From a phage: a DNA stretch of 64,000 nucleotides. The DNA is taken from sequence record PQ478073.1. One strand, given 5' to 3'. The notes beneath the pieces were generated by a model, which was not told the origin of the DNA, did not search any database, and was given only the letters and a program-made list of their open reading frames with translations. The position numbers and the translations under genes were made by a program. Of the stretch, positions 4,625 to 59,201 are shown in pieces (positions within the stretch are counted from its first letter, which is position 1; each line of letters opens with the position of its first letter).

Positions 4625-5172
4625 GTGTTAAAGAAGTTCCCTTTGGTGAATATGGCTCACGTGCAAATTTTGTATTTTGTTATTTCTTTGCAAGAAAATG
4701 TAACCCTTACAAAAACTATGAGTTGAATGATATACCAGAAGTAAATTTAGTTTTACTACAATTACGATGGGATGGTCTTCTTGGTGGATGTGGTGGAACC
4801 GTAGAAAGTACTGATATCTCACTAGAAGATGCGTTGCGTCGTGAAGTTCAAGAAGAAATGGATTACAATATTTTTGTTTCCCATCTTCGACCACTCAAAA
4901 CTTTTGAAATTTACCCAGGTGCAAACAGTCATAGTTTTAGCTATGAAGTAAGCTATGACGAGTTGAAACACATTAGAGATGGATACACTAATGCTAAACA
5001 TGCGAGTGCTGAAGTTGCTGGTGTAAATTTATGTCATATTTCTCGTTATTCTAAGGGACAAAATCGAGAAGCGGGATATAATAATCTTATGACACAGAAC
5101 TTCATTGGTACAGCAAAACAAGAATTGGAGTATCTGGTTCAAAAAGAAAACTTACTAATTAGTTATCTATAG
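4621..5172 (+). CDS. Nudix-like hydrolase
   Basis: approximate Nudix box GGTVE...LRREVQEEM; ATGA coupling to Sir2 gene. Confidence 0.5.
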   Translation: MSVKEVPFGEYGSRANFVFCYFFARKCNPYKNYELNDIPEVNLVLLQLRWDGLLGGCGGTVESTDISLEDALRREVQEEMDYNIFVSHLRPLKTFEIYPGANSHSFSYEVSYDELKHIRDGYTNAKHASAEVAGVNLCHISRYSKGQNREAGYNNLMTQNFIGTAKQELEYLVQKENLLISYL

Positions 5173-5861: not shown

Positions 5862-7301
5862 ATGAAAAAATATACAATTGACACAAACGTACTACTATCT
5901 GACCCTAATGCATCTATTGCTTTTGATGGTGCTGCAATCATTCTACCATTTACAGTACTGGAAGAATTAGATTCGATTAAGAGTCGTAATGTAGATGTTT
6001 CACGCGATGCTCGTGTTGCTATTCGTAACATTGAAGCAATTATTGCAGATGCATCACATGACGAGATTAGTAGTACTGGTGTTAATATTGCTGATGTTCA
6101 TACCAATATGAATCCTGATAGCAAATTGTTTGTTATTACAAACGAAGAAGCTGAGGCACTAATTCGTACTAAAGGTACAGAAGAGAAAGTTCAAACCCTT
6201 CTCAAAAGTACTGTACCTGATGATAAAATCATTCTGGTAGCTTTAGCAACAGAATCAGTACTGGTAACTCGTGATATCAACATGCGTATCAAAGCACTAA
6301 GTTATGGTGTCGAGGTACAAGATTATCGCCATGATATTGTTATTGGTGATAGTGATTTGATTCACATTGGTCAACACCATCTGGAAATCAATTTTTGGGA
6401 AGTATACAGCAACTTAACCAATACTAATATTCAATCCGAACAAGTTGGTCGTCGTTTGTATCATTACATTTCTAAAAGCTTGATTGAACATCTGCTTCCA
6501 CAAAATCTATGCATCGGTGATTATCTATATGATGATGCTGACGTATTATTTGTGTACGAAGGACAATCAGCAATTGAGGAAGATGATGGAACACTAACAC
6601 CAGAAGATATTTTGGTATTCCAAGACATTGGACAATCAGTGGCTTTACGTGCTAAAGTATGGGATATTAAAGCAAAGAATATCCAACAAGCACTCGCCAT
6701 CAACAGTATTCTCGATCCTGATGTACATCTAACAGTACTACTAGGTTCTGCTGGTACTGGTAAAACACTAATTACAATTGCTACTGCATTAGAATTAGTA
6801 CTGGAAAAACGTAAATACGACCGAATCATCTTCTCTAAAACTCAAGACTCACAGTTTGAAGATATTGGTTTCTTGCCAGGTTCAGAAGCAGAAAAAGTGA
6901 TTCCATTCTGTGGAGCCGCGATTGATGCGTTAGAGTTTCTTCATAAAGATGATGCAAACCCACAAGGTAGTATTGAAGAGATTATGAAACGTAATGTTAT
7001 TCAATTTAAAGCACTAAACTTTGTACGTGGACGTTCATTCACCAACACTATTCTAGTAGTTGATGAATTCCAAAACATTACACCTGCACAAGCAAAAACC
7101 ATCTTGACACGAGCAGGGTTAAACTGTAAAGTAGTAATTATGGGTAACTTGAGTCAGATTGACAGTAAGTTTATTAGTCCTGTTAACAGTGGTTTGACAT
7201 ATGTAACTGAGAAGTTTAAAGACTGGGCAGGTTGTCGTGTCATCGAACTAGAAGGTGTTGTTCGTTCACCACTGGCTGAATTTGCTGAAGAAAATATGTA
7301 A
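5862..7301 (+). CDS. phoH: PhoH-like ATPase with N-terminal PIN domain
   Basis: PIN-like N-terminus (IDTNVLL), Walker A GSAGTGKT, Walker B LVVDEFQN. Confidence 0.85.
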   Translation: MKKYTIDTNVLLSDPNASIAFDGAAIILPFTVLEELDSIKSRNVDVSRDARVAIRNIEAIIADASHDEISSTGVNIADVHTNMNPDSKLFVITNEEAEALIRTKGTEEKVQTLLKSTVPDDKIILVALATESVLVTRDINMRIKALSYGVEVQDYRHDIVIGDSDLIHIGQHHLEINFWEVYSNLTNTNIQSEQVGRRLYHYISKSLIEHLLPQNLCIGDYLYDDADVLFVYEGQSAIEEDDGTLTPEDILVFQDIGQSVALRAKVWDIKAKNIQQALAINSILDPDVHLTVLLGSAGTGKTLITIATALELVLEKRKYDRIIFSKTQDSQFEDIGFLPGSEAEKVIPFCGAAIDALEFLHKDDANPQGSIEEIMKRNVIQFKALNFVRGRSFTNTILVVDEFQNITPAQAKTILTRAGLNCKVVIMGNLSQIDSKFISPVNSGLTYVTEKFKDWAGCRVIELEGVVRSPLAEFAEENM

Positions 7302-7309
7302 TATTGTAT

Positions 7310-7338
7310 GGGACATTATGTCCCATACATGATATAAT
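7310..7338 (+). promoter_or_regulatory. early-type sigma70 promoter (GGGACA N17 TGaTATAAT) overlapped by 11-bp perfect inverted repeat (7305-7329)
   Basis: consensus hexamers; palindrome TGTATGGGACA tta TGTCCCATACA. Confidence 0.6.
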
Positions 7339-7369
7339 GTTGTTATCATAATACAGAAGGAGATATAAA

Positions 7370-7558
7370 ATGGCTAAACAACCTAAGAAACAAGAACCAG
7401 TAGCAAAAGTTAAGAAAGAGAAAGTTATTCAATCCAAAGAACAACGTATGTACGAACAACGTAAGAGTGAAACCCTATCCGGTCTACAAGCTCTACGCAA
7501 GCAAGGTGTACTAACTCGTGCACAGTACCGTGAACTAGTAGCTCAGAAAGGTTTTTGA
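7370..7558 (+). CDS. small basic protein
   Basis: AAGGAG RBS, K/R-rich 62 aa. Confidence 0.5.
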   Translation: MAKQPKKQEPVAKVKKEKVIQSKEQRMYEQRKSETLSGLQALRKQGVLTRAQYRELVAQKGF

Positions 7559-7662
7559 TTCATTTGAAGCAATATTGTGGAGTTCTTAATAAATACTTTT
7601 ATAAGAATAATAATACTTTTTATTAAATTAAAAAGAACTCCATGTGTTATTTCAGTTTTTCG

Positions 7663-7688
7663 TCCCTGTCTTTTGGCAGGGATTTTTT
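7663..7688 (+). terminator. intrinsic terminator
   Basis: 8-bp stem, TTTT loop, T6 run. Confidence 0.6.
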
Positions 7689-7784
7689 ATATCTATATCT
7701 TGACAAAAGGAACAAATCATGAGAACATGTATTAAAGGAAGAATGACTTTCCATTAGGTTATTTTAACTTAAAGGAGATTTCAT

Positions 7785-8342
7785 ATGTTTTTTGACCAAA
7801 CATTTACGTTGTATCACGATTCTGGTAAAGTTGAGATTATTGATAATCTGTTAGAGTACATTGCGGAACATGACGGTATAGACCGTTTCCACAGTAAGAT
7901 GAAATTCGATTTAGCTGAATTCAACAAAAAGAATCGTGAAACATTTTGGAAGAACCGTTTCTATTACGAAATGTTTCCAGAAAAGTTTGTGGGTTATTAT
8001 CTTTGTACTGAAAAAGGATTACTTGTATCTCCTGATTTACTTATGGGTGAATACATGATACTCTATAATGAGTACTGGGAACATAAACGTAAAGCTCGTG
8101 ATACGGAATGGCGACATAAGCGTTCGTATATGTACAAACATAACCACTCCCGATACAAGCGTCCTAAGACTCAACAAGAGCGTCGTATGGCTTGTGCAGT
8201 ACTGAAGGATGAGGGGGAACCTGATATACGTGGAAGACGTAAGATGCGTTCATTACCATCGTATTGGGACGATATCAGAACAAGACATAGTACTGGCTGG
8301 AAATACAGTACAAAACGTAAACATCAATACAAAGGGAGCTAA
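7785..8342 (+). CDS. hypothetical protein (basic C-terminus)
   Basis: AAAGGAG RBS; no known motif. Confidence 0.5.
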   Translation: MFFDQTFTLYHDSGKVEIIDNLLEYIAEHDGIDRFHSKMKFDLAEFNKKNRETFWKNRFYYEMFPEKFVGYYLCTEKGLLVSPDLLMGEYMILYNEYWEHKRKARDTEWRHKRSYMYKHNHSRYKRPKTQQERRMACAVLKDEGEPDIRGRRKMRSLPSYWDDIRTRHSTGWKYSTKRKHQYKGS

Positions 8343-8369
8343 TGCTCCCTAATTTTATAGGTGAACTTT

Positions 8370-8699
8370 ATGAACAAAATTGACGTTACTGTAGTGATTG
8401 GTTATATTGAAATTGAACCGTGTGGCATTGATACCTTTATTGACACTCTTAATAAGTATCGTGCTGAATATAACGGTCACATTAGTCTTTCACCAGACAG
8501 TGGTTACGGCGGTTTTCATGGATACAATGTAATTTGGACCAGAGAAGAAACTGACGAAGAATATAATACACGAATTGAAGCTGAATCTAAAAGATGTGAA
8601 GAAATTGAACGTCAAGAAATGAAACACTTAATGAACAAGAAATCATTAAGTACCGAAGAGAAATCTAAACTGCTAAAATACATCAAGGATTACATGTAA
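8370..8699 (+). CDS. hypothetical protein
   Basis: ATG 8370 with AGGTGA RBS. Confidence 0.45.
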   Translation: MNKIDVTVVIGYIEIEPCGIDTFIDTLNKYRAEYNGHISLSPDSGYGGFHGYNVIWTREETDEEYNTRIEAESKRCEEIERQEMKHLMNKKSLSTEEKSKLLKYIKDYM

Positions 8700-9349
8700 T
8701 GAAAAATGTAACTCAAGAAAAGATTCTGTACCTTGCAAAGTACAATGGTGGTTTCAATATCATTAGCCGTGAGTACAGTGGTAATTTGGCTAAGTTGATT
8801 GACAGTTTGTTAGAATTTGATTTCATTAAATGGGAAACTAATGAACTTTGGTACGAATATGCTGGTCAGAAATGGGAAAGTGATTATGATAATGCAATAC
8901 ATTCATACACTATCACCAAAGCAGGTGAAGTTCGATTAGCCATTATGCGTTGTGCATATACTTACAAAAATCATAAAGGTGAAGAAAAACATATTCGCAG
9001 AAATGAAGAGCTATTACTTCTCATGGAAGCAGCAAAAGTTACAATGCATGATTTGTTCCACCACCCACGTTGGTATGAAAATCTAACAAAAGCAGAGTAC
9101 AAAGCTTTACGTTACATTGATGAACAAAACAATACCCCAGTTGTAGTTGATGATGTTTGTGATGGTGAACTAACCATCAAAAACGTATTTGAAAGCACCA
9201 GTACAGAAAGTATTACAGACATTTCTGTACAGATGGCCCTAAAAGCAATGGAACTTTTCAAGACACAATATGAAGGACACAGTGCTGAAGAAGTAGAGCG
9301 TGAGTTCATCACACGCGTACAGATTGCATTGTTCCAATCGAAAAAGTAG
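8699..9349 (+). CDS. hypothetical protein
   Basis: TAATG overlap coupling. Confidence 0.5.
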   Translation: MKNVTQEKILYLAKYNGGFNIISREYSGNLAKLIDSLLEFDFIKWETNELWYEYAGQKWESDYDNAIHSYTITKAGEVRLAIMRCAYTYKNHKGEEKHIRRNEELLLLMEAAKVTMHDLFHHPRWYENLTKAEYKALRYIDEQNNTPVVVDDVCDGELTIKNVFESTSTESITDISVQMALKAMELFKTQYEGHSAEEVEREFITRVQIALFQSKK

Positions 9350-32132: not shown

Positions 32133-32160
32133 GGGACATTATATGTTCCAATGATATAAT
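32133..32160 (+). promoter_or_regulatory. early-type sigma70 promoter (GGGACA N16 TGaTATAAT)
   Basis: same family as 7310, 43232, 62243. Confidence 0.6.
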
Positions 32161-32434
32161 GTATATAGAAAATGACAACGGACATTGAAAAATGGACACT
32201 GAGAACCTACTTCTCTTGAAAATGTAAAGGATAGATGAGCTTTACCGTTGTAGCGAACAGCAGAAGAAACCTGTTAGAGTACTGGCATTCAAACAAACAC
32301 GATGTAAGACCACGAATCACGGCGACACGGCTGTATAAAGAACTCCGATAAGCATACAGAGAGTTCCTAGATAGATGTATAAGGTTCGCACCTTACCAGA
32401 TTTGCTAAGGGAGTTCAAGGATAGCGGACGCAAT

Positions 32435-32467
32435 TTTTACAAGAAAGTTGCGTCCAAAATTTGAGAA
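32435..32467 (+). repeat. direct repeat copy 1 (ACAAGAAAG nnn CGTCCAAAATTTGAGAA)
   Basis: near-identical copy at 32586-32620. Confidence 0.6.
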
Positions 32468-32585
32468 CAAGTACTACTTTGATCGAATAGAGTTAGTACT
32501 GAGTGCTGTTGATGAAAAGACCAGCGACCGTTGCATATGACTGCGATAGAGAGAAACCGAGCAACCCGCTTTCGCTCTCTAAATT

Positions 32586-32620
32586 TTGGTACAAGAAAGA
32601 TCCGTCCAAAATTTGAGAAA
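32586..32620 (+). repeat. direct repeat copy 2
   Basis: matches 32435-32467 with 2-3 mismatches. Confidence 0.6.
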
Positions 32621-32658
32621 TTCGCAATTCGATAATATCCGATGCCATCATCGTCAAG

Positions 32659-32681
32659 AGAGACTTAATTGTCTCTTTTTT
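32659..32681 (+). terminator. intrinsic terminator
   Basis: AGAGAC/GTCTCT stem, T5. Confidence 0.55.
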
Positions 32682-32821
32682 ATTACCTTCATTCCCCTGC
32701 GGGGGGATGTAATAGTCCTCAACAAATCCCGTCAAGTTTTTAAAGTACATTATCATTTTCAGAAGGAACTAGTTTACGAAGTAAACGCAGTGACTTCTTG
32801 AGTTACGAGAGAACGAAGTGA

Positions 32822-59080: not shown

Positions 59081-59108
59081 TTGACAAGATAGAATGATGT
59101 GATATAAT
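59081..59108 (+). promoter_or_regulatory. sigma70 promoter P1 (TTGACA N16 TGaTATAAT), -10 flanked by inverted repeat
   Basis: consensus hexamers; tandem with P2. Confidence 0.6.
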
Positions 59109-59173
59109 AAGCATCAGACATAAAGTTTTCAAGCGTCACAAGATGTGAGTTTGAAAAAAAGAAAAAAAAGTGA

Positions 59174-59201
59174 TTGACAAGTTGAAACGATGTGATATAA
59201 T
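59174..59201 (+). promoter_or_regulatory. sigma70 promoter P2 (TTGACA N16 TGaTATAAT), -10 inside 7-bp inverted repeat GATGTGA/TCACATC
   Basis: consensus hexamers. Confidence 0.6.

Follow-up and report, generated by a model that had tools for sequence, protein, structure and literature searches.

Features of the locus

The phoH-like open reading frame (ORF) ends with a stop codon at positions 7299-7301, and 4 nt after it a perfect 11-bp inverted repeat with a 3-nt loop, TGTATGGGACA-tta-TGTCCCATACA, occupies positions 7305-7329 of the + strand. The repeat consists of TGTAT (7305-7309) and GGGACA (7310-7315) in the 5' arm, the loop TTA (7316-7318) and the 3' arm TGTCCCATACA (7319-7329). The GGGACA in the 5' arm is also the upstream box of a putative promoter at 7310-7338 (+), in which a 17-nt spacer separates it from the hexamer of an extended -10 element, TGATATAAT (7330-7338). 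Transcription would start near 7345, and a 62-aa ORF with a ribosome binding site begins with an ATG at 7370.

The window, i.e., the whole stretch of 64,000 nt that was analysed, carries nearly all of its ORFs on the + strand. Positions 6000-9000 share 98-99% identity with Escherichia phage 121Q, PBECO4, phAPEC6, and about 20 other jumbo phages of Asteriusvirus, the closest relatives, with genomes of roughly 350 kb. More distantly related are RaK2, GAP32, and CBB, as well as phages of Serratia, Erwinia, and Salmonella. By its sequence the window is that of a 121Q-like E. coli jumbo phage (Asteriusvirus). No tRNA or tmRNA was found in it, a search of the whole window against Rfam gave no match at the gathering score, and the T4-type late motif TATAAATA occurs once on each strand.

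Genome-wide scans were done on the complete annotated 121Q genome. For the comparison, loci around the genes of PhoH, the Zn-hydrolase, SbcD, RecA, and sigma were taken from IMG/VR, and the set comprised 121Q, RaK2, CBB, GAP32, Serratia BF, Yersinia fHe-Yen9-04, and seven UViGs. Every TGnTATAAT was listed with the 30 nt upstream of it. For the sigma loci an alignment served as the query, as the single protein gp167 of 121Q had recovered only 121Q.

Copies of the GGGACA promoter in the window

The pattern GGGACA-N15-19-TATAAT was found five times in the window, always on the + strand, against 0.05 matches expected, and none of 100 shuffled sequences reached five. The sites start at 5055, 7310, 32133, 43232, and 62243. 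The recurrent architecture that the original prediction had placed at the last four was thereby borne out, and all four are real sites, but the weaker copy at 5055 had been overlooked. Spacers of both 16 and 17 nt between the hexamers, as proposed earlier, do occur, but 17 nt was found at 7310 alone and 16 nt at the other four. The 8-mer GTGGGACA, put forward as common to the family, is exact at 43232 and 62243, whereas 7310 and 32133 have ATGGGACA. Taken alone and with one mismatch allowed, GTGGGACA was not enriched in the window (28 found, 31.6 expected).

An extended -10 of the sigma-70 type, TG and TATAAT in the form TGATATAAT, is present at 7330, 32152, 43251, and 62262, while the site at 5055 is without TG. 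The copy at 32133-32160 (+) has GGGACA, a 16-nt spacer, and TGATATAAT at 32152-32160, and stands ahead of a candidate non-coding RNA and no protein gene. In the copy at 43232-43259 (+), GTGGGACA is followed by a 16-nt spacer and TGATATAAT at 43251-43259; an A-rich stretch, aaaaatagt, lies just ahead, and genes for a Nudix hydrolase and a glutaredoxin lie downstream. The copy at 62243-62270 (+) is built likewise of GTGGGACA, a 16-nt spacer, and TGATATAAT at 62262-62270, with three small ORFs and then thymidylate synthase downstream. The weak fifth copy (5055-5082, +), in which GGGACA, a 16-nt spacer, and TATAAT are combined with GG in place of TG, lies within an ORF about 100 nt ahead of the next gene; its PWM score of 15.4 bits is borderline against the shuffle maximum of 14.5. 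When described as a 7-nt box, a 13-nt spacer, and TGnTATAAT, 29 nt in all, the geometry fits exactly at 32133, 43232, and 62243, and the site at 7310 has one spacer base more. Two canonical promoters of the form TTGACA-N13-TGATATAAT stand in tandem at 59081-59201 (+), with TTGACA at 59081 and 59174, and their register equals that of the GGGACA sites.

The class across the 121Q genome

Exact GGGACA-N16/17-TATAAT sites number 12 in the 121Q genome and TTGACA sites 32, and every one of them is on the + strand. When the box was relaxed to G[GA]GA[CT][AG], 17 of the 101 TGnTATAAT sites carried it in the -35 register, again all on the + strand, against 0.18 expected. This genome-wide enrichment of GRGAYR is in line with the original prediction, and by comparative evidence the GGGACA sites are supported as members of one promoter family. 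Sites of the class stand ahead of gene 6 and RecA (as a tandem pair), gene 11 after UvsW, primase, an exonuclease, the Nudix and glutaredoxin genes, the ThyA operon, and gene 591 with SbcCD, gene 591 being annotated as an RNA polymerase sigma factor. Four further sites lie upstream of gaps carrying no annotation. Many of the TTGACA sites lie among very small ORFs at 135-153 kb and have TTGACA-N8-AGTACTGTATAAT in common. The class promoters often have an A-rich stretch upstream.

Such a family might also arise from ordinary extended -10 promoters of host sigma-70, with GGGACA as nothing more than a weak but tolerated -35, spread by copying of the promoters. The sites agree with the sigma-70 consensus in 10 of 12 bases and have the TG besides, and the box retains the xxGACA of TTGACA at sigma-70 spacing. 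The A-rich upstream stretch is common to the TTGACA class, the spacers of the copies at 7310 and 32133 are alike, and host sigma-70 can use a perfect extended -10 without any -35. However, 12-17 sites whose spacers are unrelated have all retained GG in the two -35 positions that are conserved most strongly, and the behaviour of the box in the related phages speaks further against a tolerated -35.

Lineage variants of the class in related phages

For Pectobacterium phage CBB, 18 RpoD-like promoters were described, together with a second class in which the -10 is classic and TTGACA is replaced by TGAAACG (Buttimer et al., 2017, PMC5259590). Members of the second class lie mostly upstream of DNA-synthesis genes, one of them immediately ahead of the gp55-like sigma gene, and the class was reported in Cronobacter phage GAP32 too (PMC5259590, citing Abbasifar et al., 2014, for GAP32). 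Table S6 of the same study gives it as "Promoter 1", a divergent RpoD-like promoter of 29 nt predicted by MEME, TG(A/G)AA(C/T)(G/A)-N13-TG(G/C/A)TATAAT, with the short form TGAAACG-N13-TGGTATAAT in CBB and GAP32 and with TGAAACGTAAGGAATTTTTCTGCTATAAT and Porf_244, TGGAACGTTTTTTAAAATTGTGGTATAAT, among its examples (PMC5259590).

The 7 + 13 + 9 nt of Promoter 1 are identical in geometry to GTGGGACAAAAAACCAATAACTGATATAAT of the window, and both kinds of promoter are found at orthologous loci, in the same positions and before the same kinds of genes. The positional counterpart of the CBB gp55-like sigma gene, CBB_244, is gene 591 in 121Q. They differ in the box, which is GGGACA or GAGACA in 121Q vs. 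TGAAACG, TGGAACG, or TGGAATG, and in the base at -13, A or C in 121Q vs. G. The 121Q class sites do not follow the published TGAAACG consensus and are without any GAAACG-type box; because of this difference the 121Q box was filed as a lineage variant of Promoter 1.

In up to 13 genomes, promoters of the class occupy orthologous positions at the loci of SbcD, RecA, and sigma. One stands upstream of the gene preceding SbcD, which is gene 591 in 121Q, and there each lineage has its own box. The promoter of the Zn-hydrolase locus, to which the copy at 62243 corresponds, came up in 121Q, in RaK2, and in three of the UViG lineages. In 121Q the box is GGGACA ten times and GAGACA four times, and the base at -13 is A at 21 sites, C at seven, and never G. 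The three UViG lineages with a Munch-type sigma have GGGACA (21 sites) and GGGATG (six), with A at -13 in 25 cases and C in five. RaK2 has TGAACA, TGAACG, and TGAATG, and A at -13 in all six. The CBB-type genomes use GAAACG, GGAATG, GGAACG, and GGAACA; of their 56 sites, 46 have G at -13, five C, and five A, and no GGGACA was found in these genomes. The motif is thus enriched, conserved at orthologous positions throughout the clade, and specific in its box to the phage lineage, and the GGGACA class is best understood, from these alignments, as the 121Q-lineage variant of a clade-wide and previously predicted promoter class. In the literature we found no description of a 121Q-lineage (GGGACA) variant when searching for 121Q, phAPEC6, and Asteriusvirus, and no start-site mapping or expression data for any phage of the clade; promoter activity and timing of the class are what we infer from its sequence and position.

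The hosts of these lineages overlap. Salmonella is infected by both 121Q-type and Munch-type phages, and Erwinia by CBB-type and probably Munch-type phages, while the DNA-binding regions of sigma-70 are essentially identical across the Enterobacterales. Since the box varies coherently with the phage lineage on overlapping hosts, a phage-encoded reader of the box is indicated, and we consider such a reader probable. The same coherent shift, and the retention of the box at orthologous sites in spite of diverged flanks, make ordinary host promoters with a tolerated -35 an improbable explanation. The original prediction had raised the idea that GGGACA is a factor-recognition element and no degenerate sigma70 -35, and the comparison, which is the sole kind of evidence here, favours it: the box is invariant within the lineage, differs between lineages on the same hosts, and also tracks residues of the phage sigma factor.

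A candidate structured RNA downstream of the class promoters

About 690 nt downstream of the copy at 32133, with a transcript start expected near 32167, are without a credible ORF. At 32203-32736 (+) lies the conserved core of a putative large structured RNA, which belongs to a set of four paralogs per 121Q genome. At 66-71% nucleotide identity the stretch recurs in CBB, GAP32, and phages of Yersinia, Serratia, Erwinia, and Xanthomonas, where it is unannotated, and the element is found in 3-5 places per genome. The paralogs in 121Q, at 90297-90915, 192806-193410, 247476-248112, and 326644-327272, each follow a class promoter directly and are located in the four gaps without annotation mentioned above. 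With nhmmer the element was detected at the SbcD and sigma loci in every lineage compared, the match in RaK2 being partial, and in every lineage a class promoter stands a few tens of nt upstream of it, at no fewer than two loci per genome.

An alignment of 24 sequences contains invariant blocks between covarying helices. RNAalifold predicted 73 pairs, and compensatory changes occur in 44 of these. The fraction of paired cells in this alignment is 98.1%, whereas shuffles give 82.5% and sliding of the partners 36-47%, and 259 cells have double changes against 71 in shuffles; none of 500 shuffles reached the observed values. Invariant G·U pairs identify the + strand as the RNA strand. The predicted long-range pairs enclose the whole of the approximately 530 nt, and with it an insert resembling a terminator that some of the copies have. 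No Rfam family matched the RNA region at E<=1, and for the CBB copy at E<=5 there was a chance match to PinT alone (17 bits, cut-off 60). A strict pattern of three blocks retrieved 33 sites from 2.9 million viral contigs, all of them within this clade. The ncRNAs of PA5oct are supported by RNA-seq (PMC7318152); two of these, ncRNA002 and ncRNA004, were considered as relatives and rejected, as nhmmer gave no similarity. No description of a large jumbo-phage RNA matching this one was found in the literature. As the RNA needs transcription of the + strand and a class promoter is conserved upstream of it in all lineages, the motif gains independent support, again of a comparative kind, as a working promoter. 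We propose that the copy at 32133 drives a previously undescribed candidate structured RNA of about 530 nt, restricted to this clade.

The inverted repeat downstream of phoH

The perfect 11-bp palindrome across the -35 element at 7305-7329 was confirmed in sequence and coordinates. As a hairpin it has 11 bp with five GC pairs and a predicted energy of -18.7 kcal/mol (z = -3.1). Perfect inverted repeats with a short loop and 9 bp or more number about 13 in the window, this one included, and most of the others are terminators with a T-tail. Here the stem is followed by TGATATAATGTTGTT, in agreement with the earlier remark that a U-tract is absent, and because of the absent T-tract a scan with a terminator consensus did not call the hairpin. 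From the absent U-tract it had been proposed that the repeat looks more like an operator or processing site than a terminator. An operator would presumably serve a dimeric phage regulator, and processing would be of the RNase III type; the perfect repeat over the -35 and the spacer is in favour of such a reading.

In the relatives, however, the same place is held by terminators. A hairpin stands directly 3' of phoH in every one of them, mostly as a canonical terminator of GC-stem and T-tract, as in CBB (GGGGATAC-ttag-GTATCCCC-TTTTT) and, in the same form, GAP32, Serratia BF, Yen9-04, and four UViGs. Two UViG lineages have GGGGGCA..TGCCCCC after phoH, a weak T-run next to it, and then TGATATAAT. 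RaK2 has a different hairpin and, farther downstream, a TTGACA promoter. The promoter copy downstream of phoH is found in the 121Q lineage only, with TGATATAAT being there in the two UViG lineages as well. By its position, the hairpin at 7305-7329 is therefore a homolog of the phoH terminators.

Eight Asteriusvirus variants keep the 3' arm GTCCCATACA, TGGGAC of the 5' arm, and TGATATAAT invariant, while the sequence further downstream diverges. The stem changes are A-to-G substitutions in the 5' arm opposite T, which give G·U in RNA of the + strand but, were the opposite strand transcribed, C·A. Changes next to the loop enlarge the loop and nothing more; UE-S1 has GGGACG. Since the stem changes keep G·U pairing and break the two-fold symmetry, they suggest that an RNA hairpin of the + strand, and not a symmetric site for a protein, is under selection. 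The palindrome half-site, moreover, does not recur in the window above chance (16 found, 20.6 expected).

An inverted repeat over the box was rejected as a feature of the class: among 106 class promoters from 11 genomes the best repeat averages 5 bp, and most promoters are without a significant repeat, doing no better than shuffles. The exceptions are the promoters at phoH, uvsW, and the thymidylate synthase operon. After uvsW, 121Q has a second fusion of hairpin and promoter, ACAGCGGG-ataaa-CCCGCTGT-ttg-TGATATAAT, with CGGGAT as the box. Ahead of the copy at 62243, a terminator hairpin GAGAACGGA-attt-TCCGTTCTC at 62208-62229 (+) is followed by a T-tract, and a 10-bp AT-rich inverted repeat, TTTTATAAGT-gggaca-ACTTATAAAA, at 62233-62258 (+) has the box as its loop. 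Orthologs in three UViG lineages have such a repeat too, although of different sequence, and this is a point in favour of an operator. With the asymmetric substitutions, the homology to canonical terminators, and the half-site that does not recur on the other side, the proposal of an operator or processing site at 7305-7329 is not upheld, and we consider it improbable, although processing might occur as far as the sequence alone can tell.

The palindrome is best read, from its position and its variants, as a phoH terminator hairpin fused to the promoter. Without a U-tract, its termination may be weak or absent. As the hairpin lies upstream of the expected start, it would be missing from transcripts begun at this promoter. 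Taken together, we hold the promoter class and the terminator origin of the hairpin with good confidence.

The phage sigma factor gp167 as a candidate reader

Gene 167 of 121Q sits in the region served by TTGACA-type promoters. Its product, gp167, matches the Pfam families Sigma70_r2, Sigma70_r3, and Sigma70_r4. Sigma70_r3 alone clears its cut-off (37.8 vs. 25.3 bits), and the other two fall just under theirs (r2, 22.9 vs. 24 bits; r4, 23.9 vs. 24.1 bits). Against the PDB, gp167 matched RpoD and SigA down to E = 5e-17. The HMMER alignments end just ahead of the recognition helix of region 4.2, and this helix, which comes after an insertion of 8-10 residues, was therefore aligned by pattern, from the sequence only. 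In this way SRSSIHRKYSEAMQKLKKL of gp167 aligns with TRERIRQIEAKALRKLRH of E. coli. Residue numbers and -35-contact roles are given as for sigma-70. I587, A594, K597, and L598, which are structural positions, are unchanged in gp167, and M and K stand as conservative replacements for L595 and R599. In the putative helix S-R-S-S-I-H-R-K, R584 is kept and E585, R586, R588, and Q589 are replaced, so that in the -35-contact set R584, E585, R588, and Q589 the equivalent of R584 alone is conserved. The replaced contact residues are consistent with an altered -35 specificity.

Sixteen phage sigmas were compared. Asteriusvirus variants with identities down to 57% all keep RSS[ILV]HRKYS, Munch-type sigmas have RTSLHRCYN, CBB-type sigmas KATLSRRYN (8/8), and RaK2 RGTLHYKFS. 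Set beside the boxes, R-[S/T]-S-x-H-R goes with both GGGAYR lineages, K-A-T-L-S-R with all eight GRAAYR genomes, and R-G-T-L-H-Y with TGAAYR in RaK2. The Munch-type sigma is overall closer to the CBB type (43-45% identity) than to the 121Q type (35-37%), but its helix positions 1, 3, and 5 match 121Q, and its genomes use GGGAYR as 121Q does. The region 3.0 residue aligned with V454 of sigma-70 is R or K in the lineages with A at -13, and E in those with G; both correlations, with the box and with -13, agree with a phage sigma as the reader and come from 3-4 independent lineages in all. On these comparisons GGGACA is most likely a phage-specific -35 element. That gp167 in particular reads it we put at slightly below even odds. 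The fuller version, in which the box is the -35 of the phage sigma, the helix has co-evolved with the box and region 3.0 with -13, and the regulon includes the RNA of about 530 nt, is offered as a tentative possibility.

The -10 element points in another direction. The W433/W434 dyad is absent from the phage sigma, and its region 2.4 varies by lineage (YM vs. RQ at sigma-70 positions 436/437) while TATAAT is invariant, which fits reading of the -10 by host sigma-70 better than by the phage sigma. The host holoenzyme might then recognise the extended -10, and a separate phage activator would bind the box, possibly together with an anti-sigma factor that remodels region 4, as in the sigma appropriation of T4 but by unrelated proteins. 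The perfect sigma-70 TGnTATAAT, kept though region 2.4 of the phage sigma differs, is in favour of an activator, as are downstream genes that look like a middle-gene set. T4 itself is a precedent, combining a sigma-70 -10 with a phage-specific upstream box (PMC2988021, PMC6755090). No homolog of AsiA or MotA, however, was detected by phmmer when all six-frame ORFs of 121Q with 40 aa or more were searched (best E 0.04 for AsiA and 0.78 for MotA), with queries checked against the PDB and a method that could miss remote homologs. No MotA box (a/t)(a/t)(a/t)TGCTTtA centred at -30 was visible in the class sequences either, in which the box is G-rich and stands at -35, with sigma-70 spacing. As, in addition, both the lineage-specific base at -13 and the box correlate with residues of the phage sigma, an activator of this kind appears rather unlikely to us, although it is the strongest competitor of gp167.

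Proposed mechanism and implications

Our overall explanation, to which we give a probability of roughly 0.6, is that these are middle-type promoters with a phage-specific box and that the palindrome is the phoH terminator hairpin. The copies at 7310, 32133, 43232, and 62243, and perhaps that at 5055, would be delayed-early or "middle" promoters of Rak2-like jumbo phages. Each would consist of a 7-nt box, a spacer of 13 (rarely 14) nt, and TGnTATAAT, and start transcription on the + strand about 7 nt after TATAAT. In the 121Q lineage the box, (T)G[G/A]GA[C/T][A/G], would lie exactly at -35, where host sigma-70 alone would not explain it, and the candidate reader is early-expressed gp167 on host core RNA polymerase. 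In the cascade that we envisage, host sigma-70 at the TTGACA promoters would give rise to the phage sigma. The phage sigma at GGGACA would then serve the replication, recombination, and nucleotide-metabolism genes, the four RNA genes, and gene 591, and the gene 591 factor, as counterpart of the gp55-like late sigma of CBB, would turn to the late genes. The repeat at 7305-7329 would have no part in promoter recognition. It would be the 3' hairpin of the phoH-like gene, a former intrinsic terminator which in the 121Q lineage became compacted onto the promoter, with its G-rich 5' arm as the box and its T-tract replaced by the -10. Forming only in read-through transcripts from phoH, it would probably be a weak terminator or a hairpin that protects the 3' end.

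Jumbo phages of the Rak2/121Q type have no RNA polymerase of their own, two sigma-like factors, and about 600 genes to schedule, and the GGGACA class may give a genome-wide handle on one temporal regulon. The lineage boxes, paired with changes in the sigma helix, offer a ready-made experiment on the evolution of -35 specificity in the sigma-70 family; if true, the co-evolution would make a natural specificity-swap series across the Rak2-like jumbo phages. In these compact genomes, as the locus illustrates, a terminator hairpin can become fused to the promoter that follows. The multi-copy RNA restricted to the clade would fall in the size class of the large RNAs ROOL and GOLLD.

Comparison with known systems

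The class resembles the middle promoters of T4 in its excellent -10 of the sigma-70 type, often with TGn, in the replacement of the -35 by a phage-specific box, and in the genes served, those of replication, recombination, and nucleotide metabolism and of the late sigma. It differs from them in the box at -35 with a spacer of 16-17 nt, as opposed to TGCTT at -30, and in a full sigma-70-like factor being encoded, whereas homologs of MotA and AsiA were not detected. SPO1 gp28 and phiEco32 gp36 are phage-encoded factors of the sigma-70 family with promoters of their own. The proposed role of gp167 is like theirs, in that an early phage sigma would redirect the host core RNA polymerase to a phage-specific consensus, but in the present class the -10 is the host consensus, and the -35 and -13 alone differ. 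With the extended -10 promoters of E. coli the class shares TG at -15/-14, a consensus -10, and A-rich DNA upstream; it departs from these in a -35 that is a conserved, non-consensus hexamer varying by phage lineage. Finally, the hairpin after phoH is like the Rho-independent terminators and terminator-promoter junctions of T4-like phages, as the stem-loop comes right after the stop codon, and like the neighbouring terminators of the window in its stem with five GC pairs. In contrast to the T4-like junctions, there is no T-tract here, the -10 abuts the stem, and the 5' arm doubles as the promoter box.

A candidate large structured RNA downstream of class promoters

A conserved non-coding element was found whose copies all lie directly downstream of a promoter of the class described here, with a GGGACA-type -35 box and an extended -10. 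The element is approximately 530 nt long and is present in four copies per genome. In the window it occupies 32167-32745, with a conserved core at 32203-32736, and its paralogs in 121Q lie at 90297-90915, 192806-193410 and 326644-327272; examples of orthologs in other phage loci are L057:14526-15064 and L210:15207-15691. Base-pair covariation was very strong, with compensatory changes in 44 of the 73 pairs and 98% of cells paired. When 2.9 M viral contigs were searched with a strict pattern, all matches (33/33) came from Rak2-like jumbo phages. No matching family was found in Rfam, and a literature search turned up no description of the element, which we consider a candidate for a new class of large structured RNA. 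Within the window copy, GTCCAAAATTTGAGAA was observed twice, at 32453-32468 and 32603-32618, the second occurrence being situated in an insertion absent from the other 121Q paralogs.

Inverted repeats, terminators and promoter boxes

The box of the promoter at 62243 lies in the loop of an AT-rich inverted repeat with perfectly paired 10-bp arms, TTTTATAAGT-gggaca-ACTTATAAAA (window 62233-62258). The repeat may simply be the T-tract of the upstream terminator pairing with the A-rich spacer; alternatively, it may be a conserved structure. Inverted repeats of 9-10 bp also flank the box in the orthologous promoters of three lineages of IMG/VR viral genomes (L033 at ~11450, L032 at ~11460 and L034 at ~11465), with differing sequences, e.g., CATTTTCTTG..CAAGAAAATG.

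G-rich 5' arms of the form GGGA(C/T) are common among the terminators of this phage, and their frequency may account for the co-option of terminator arms as promoter boxes. An ordinary T-tailed terminator at 40520-40546, AAAGGGACAGA-ttaat-TCTGTCCCTTT-tctt, carries GGGACA within its stem. A further terminator-promoter junction was noticed at 46816-46860, where AAAAAGACTCC-tatat-GGAGTCTTTTT is followed after 10 nt by TGATATAAT; its score with the weight matrix of the promoter class was 11.3, which is at noise level, and no box is recognisable.

Sigma factor genes and a TTGACA promoter array

The sigma-70-like genes within Asteriusvirus were compared between loci L023-L025 and L004:39267-40229. 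In phages such as BF17, whose phoH region matches the window at 98-99% identity, the encoded protein shares only 57-59% identity with that of 121Q, which suggests that divergence or exchange is concentrated in this gene. The low identity does not extend to the putative -35 recognition helix, which is conserved. Gene 533 of 121Q (window ~40179-40511) is annotated as "putative sigma 54", but its Pfam match (E = 4e-9) is to Ribosomal_S30AE rather than to a sigma factor; the full name of this family is "Sigma 54 modulation protein / S30EA ribosomal protein".

Outside the window, at 135-153 kb of the 121Q genome (loci L005 and L006), promoters of the form TTGACA-N8-AGTACTGTATAAT are densely arrayed, each preceded by "aaaaatagt" and followed by a tiny ORF. 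The array seems to represent a separate class of immediate-early promoters; AGTAC is invariant in the spacers of its promoters, which exceeds what sigma-70 requires.
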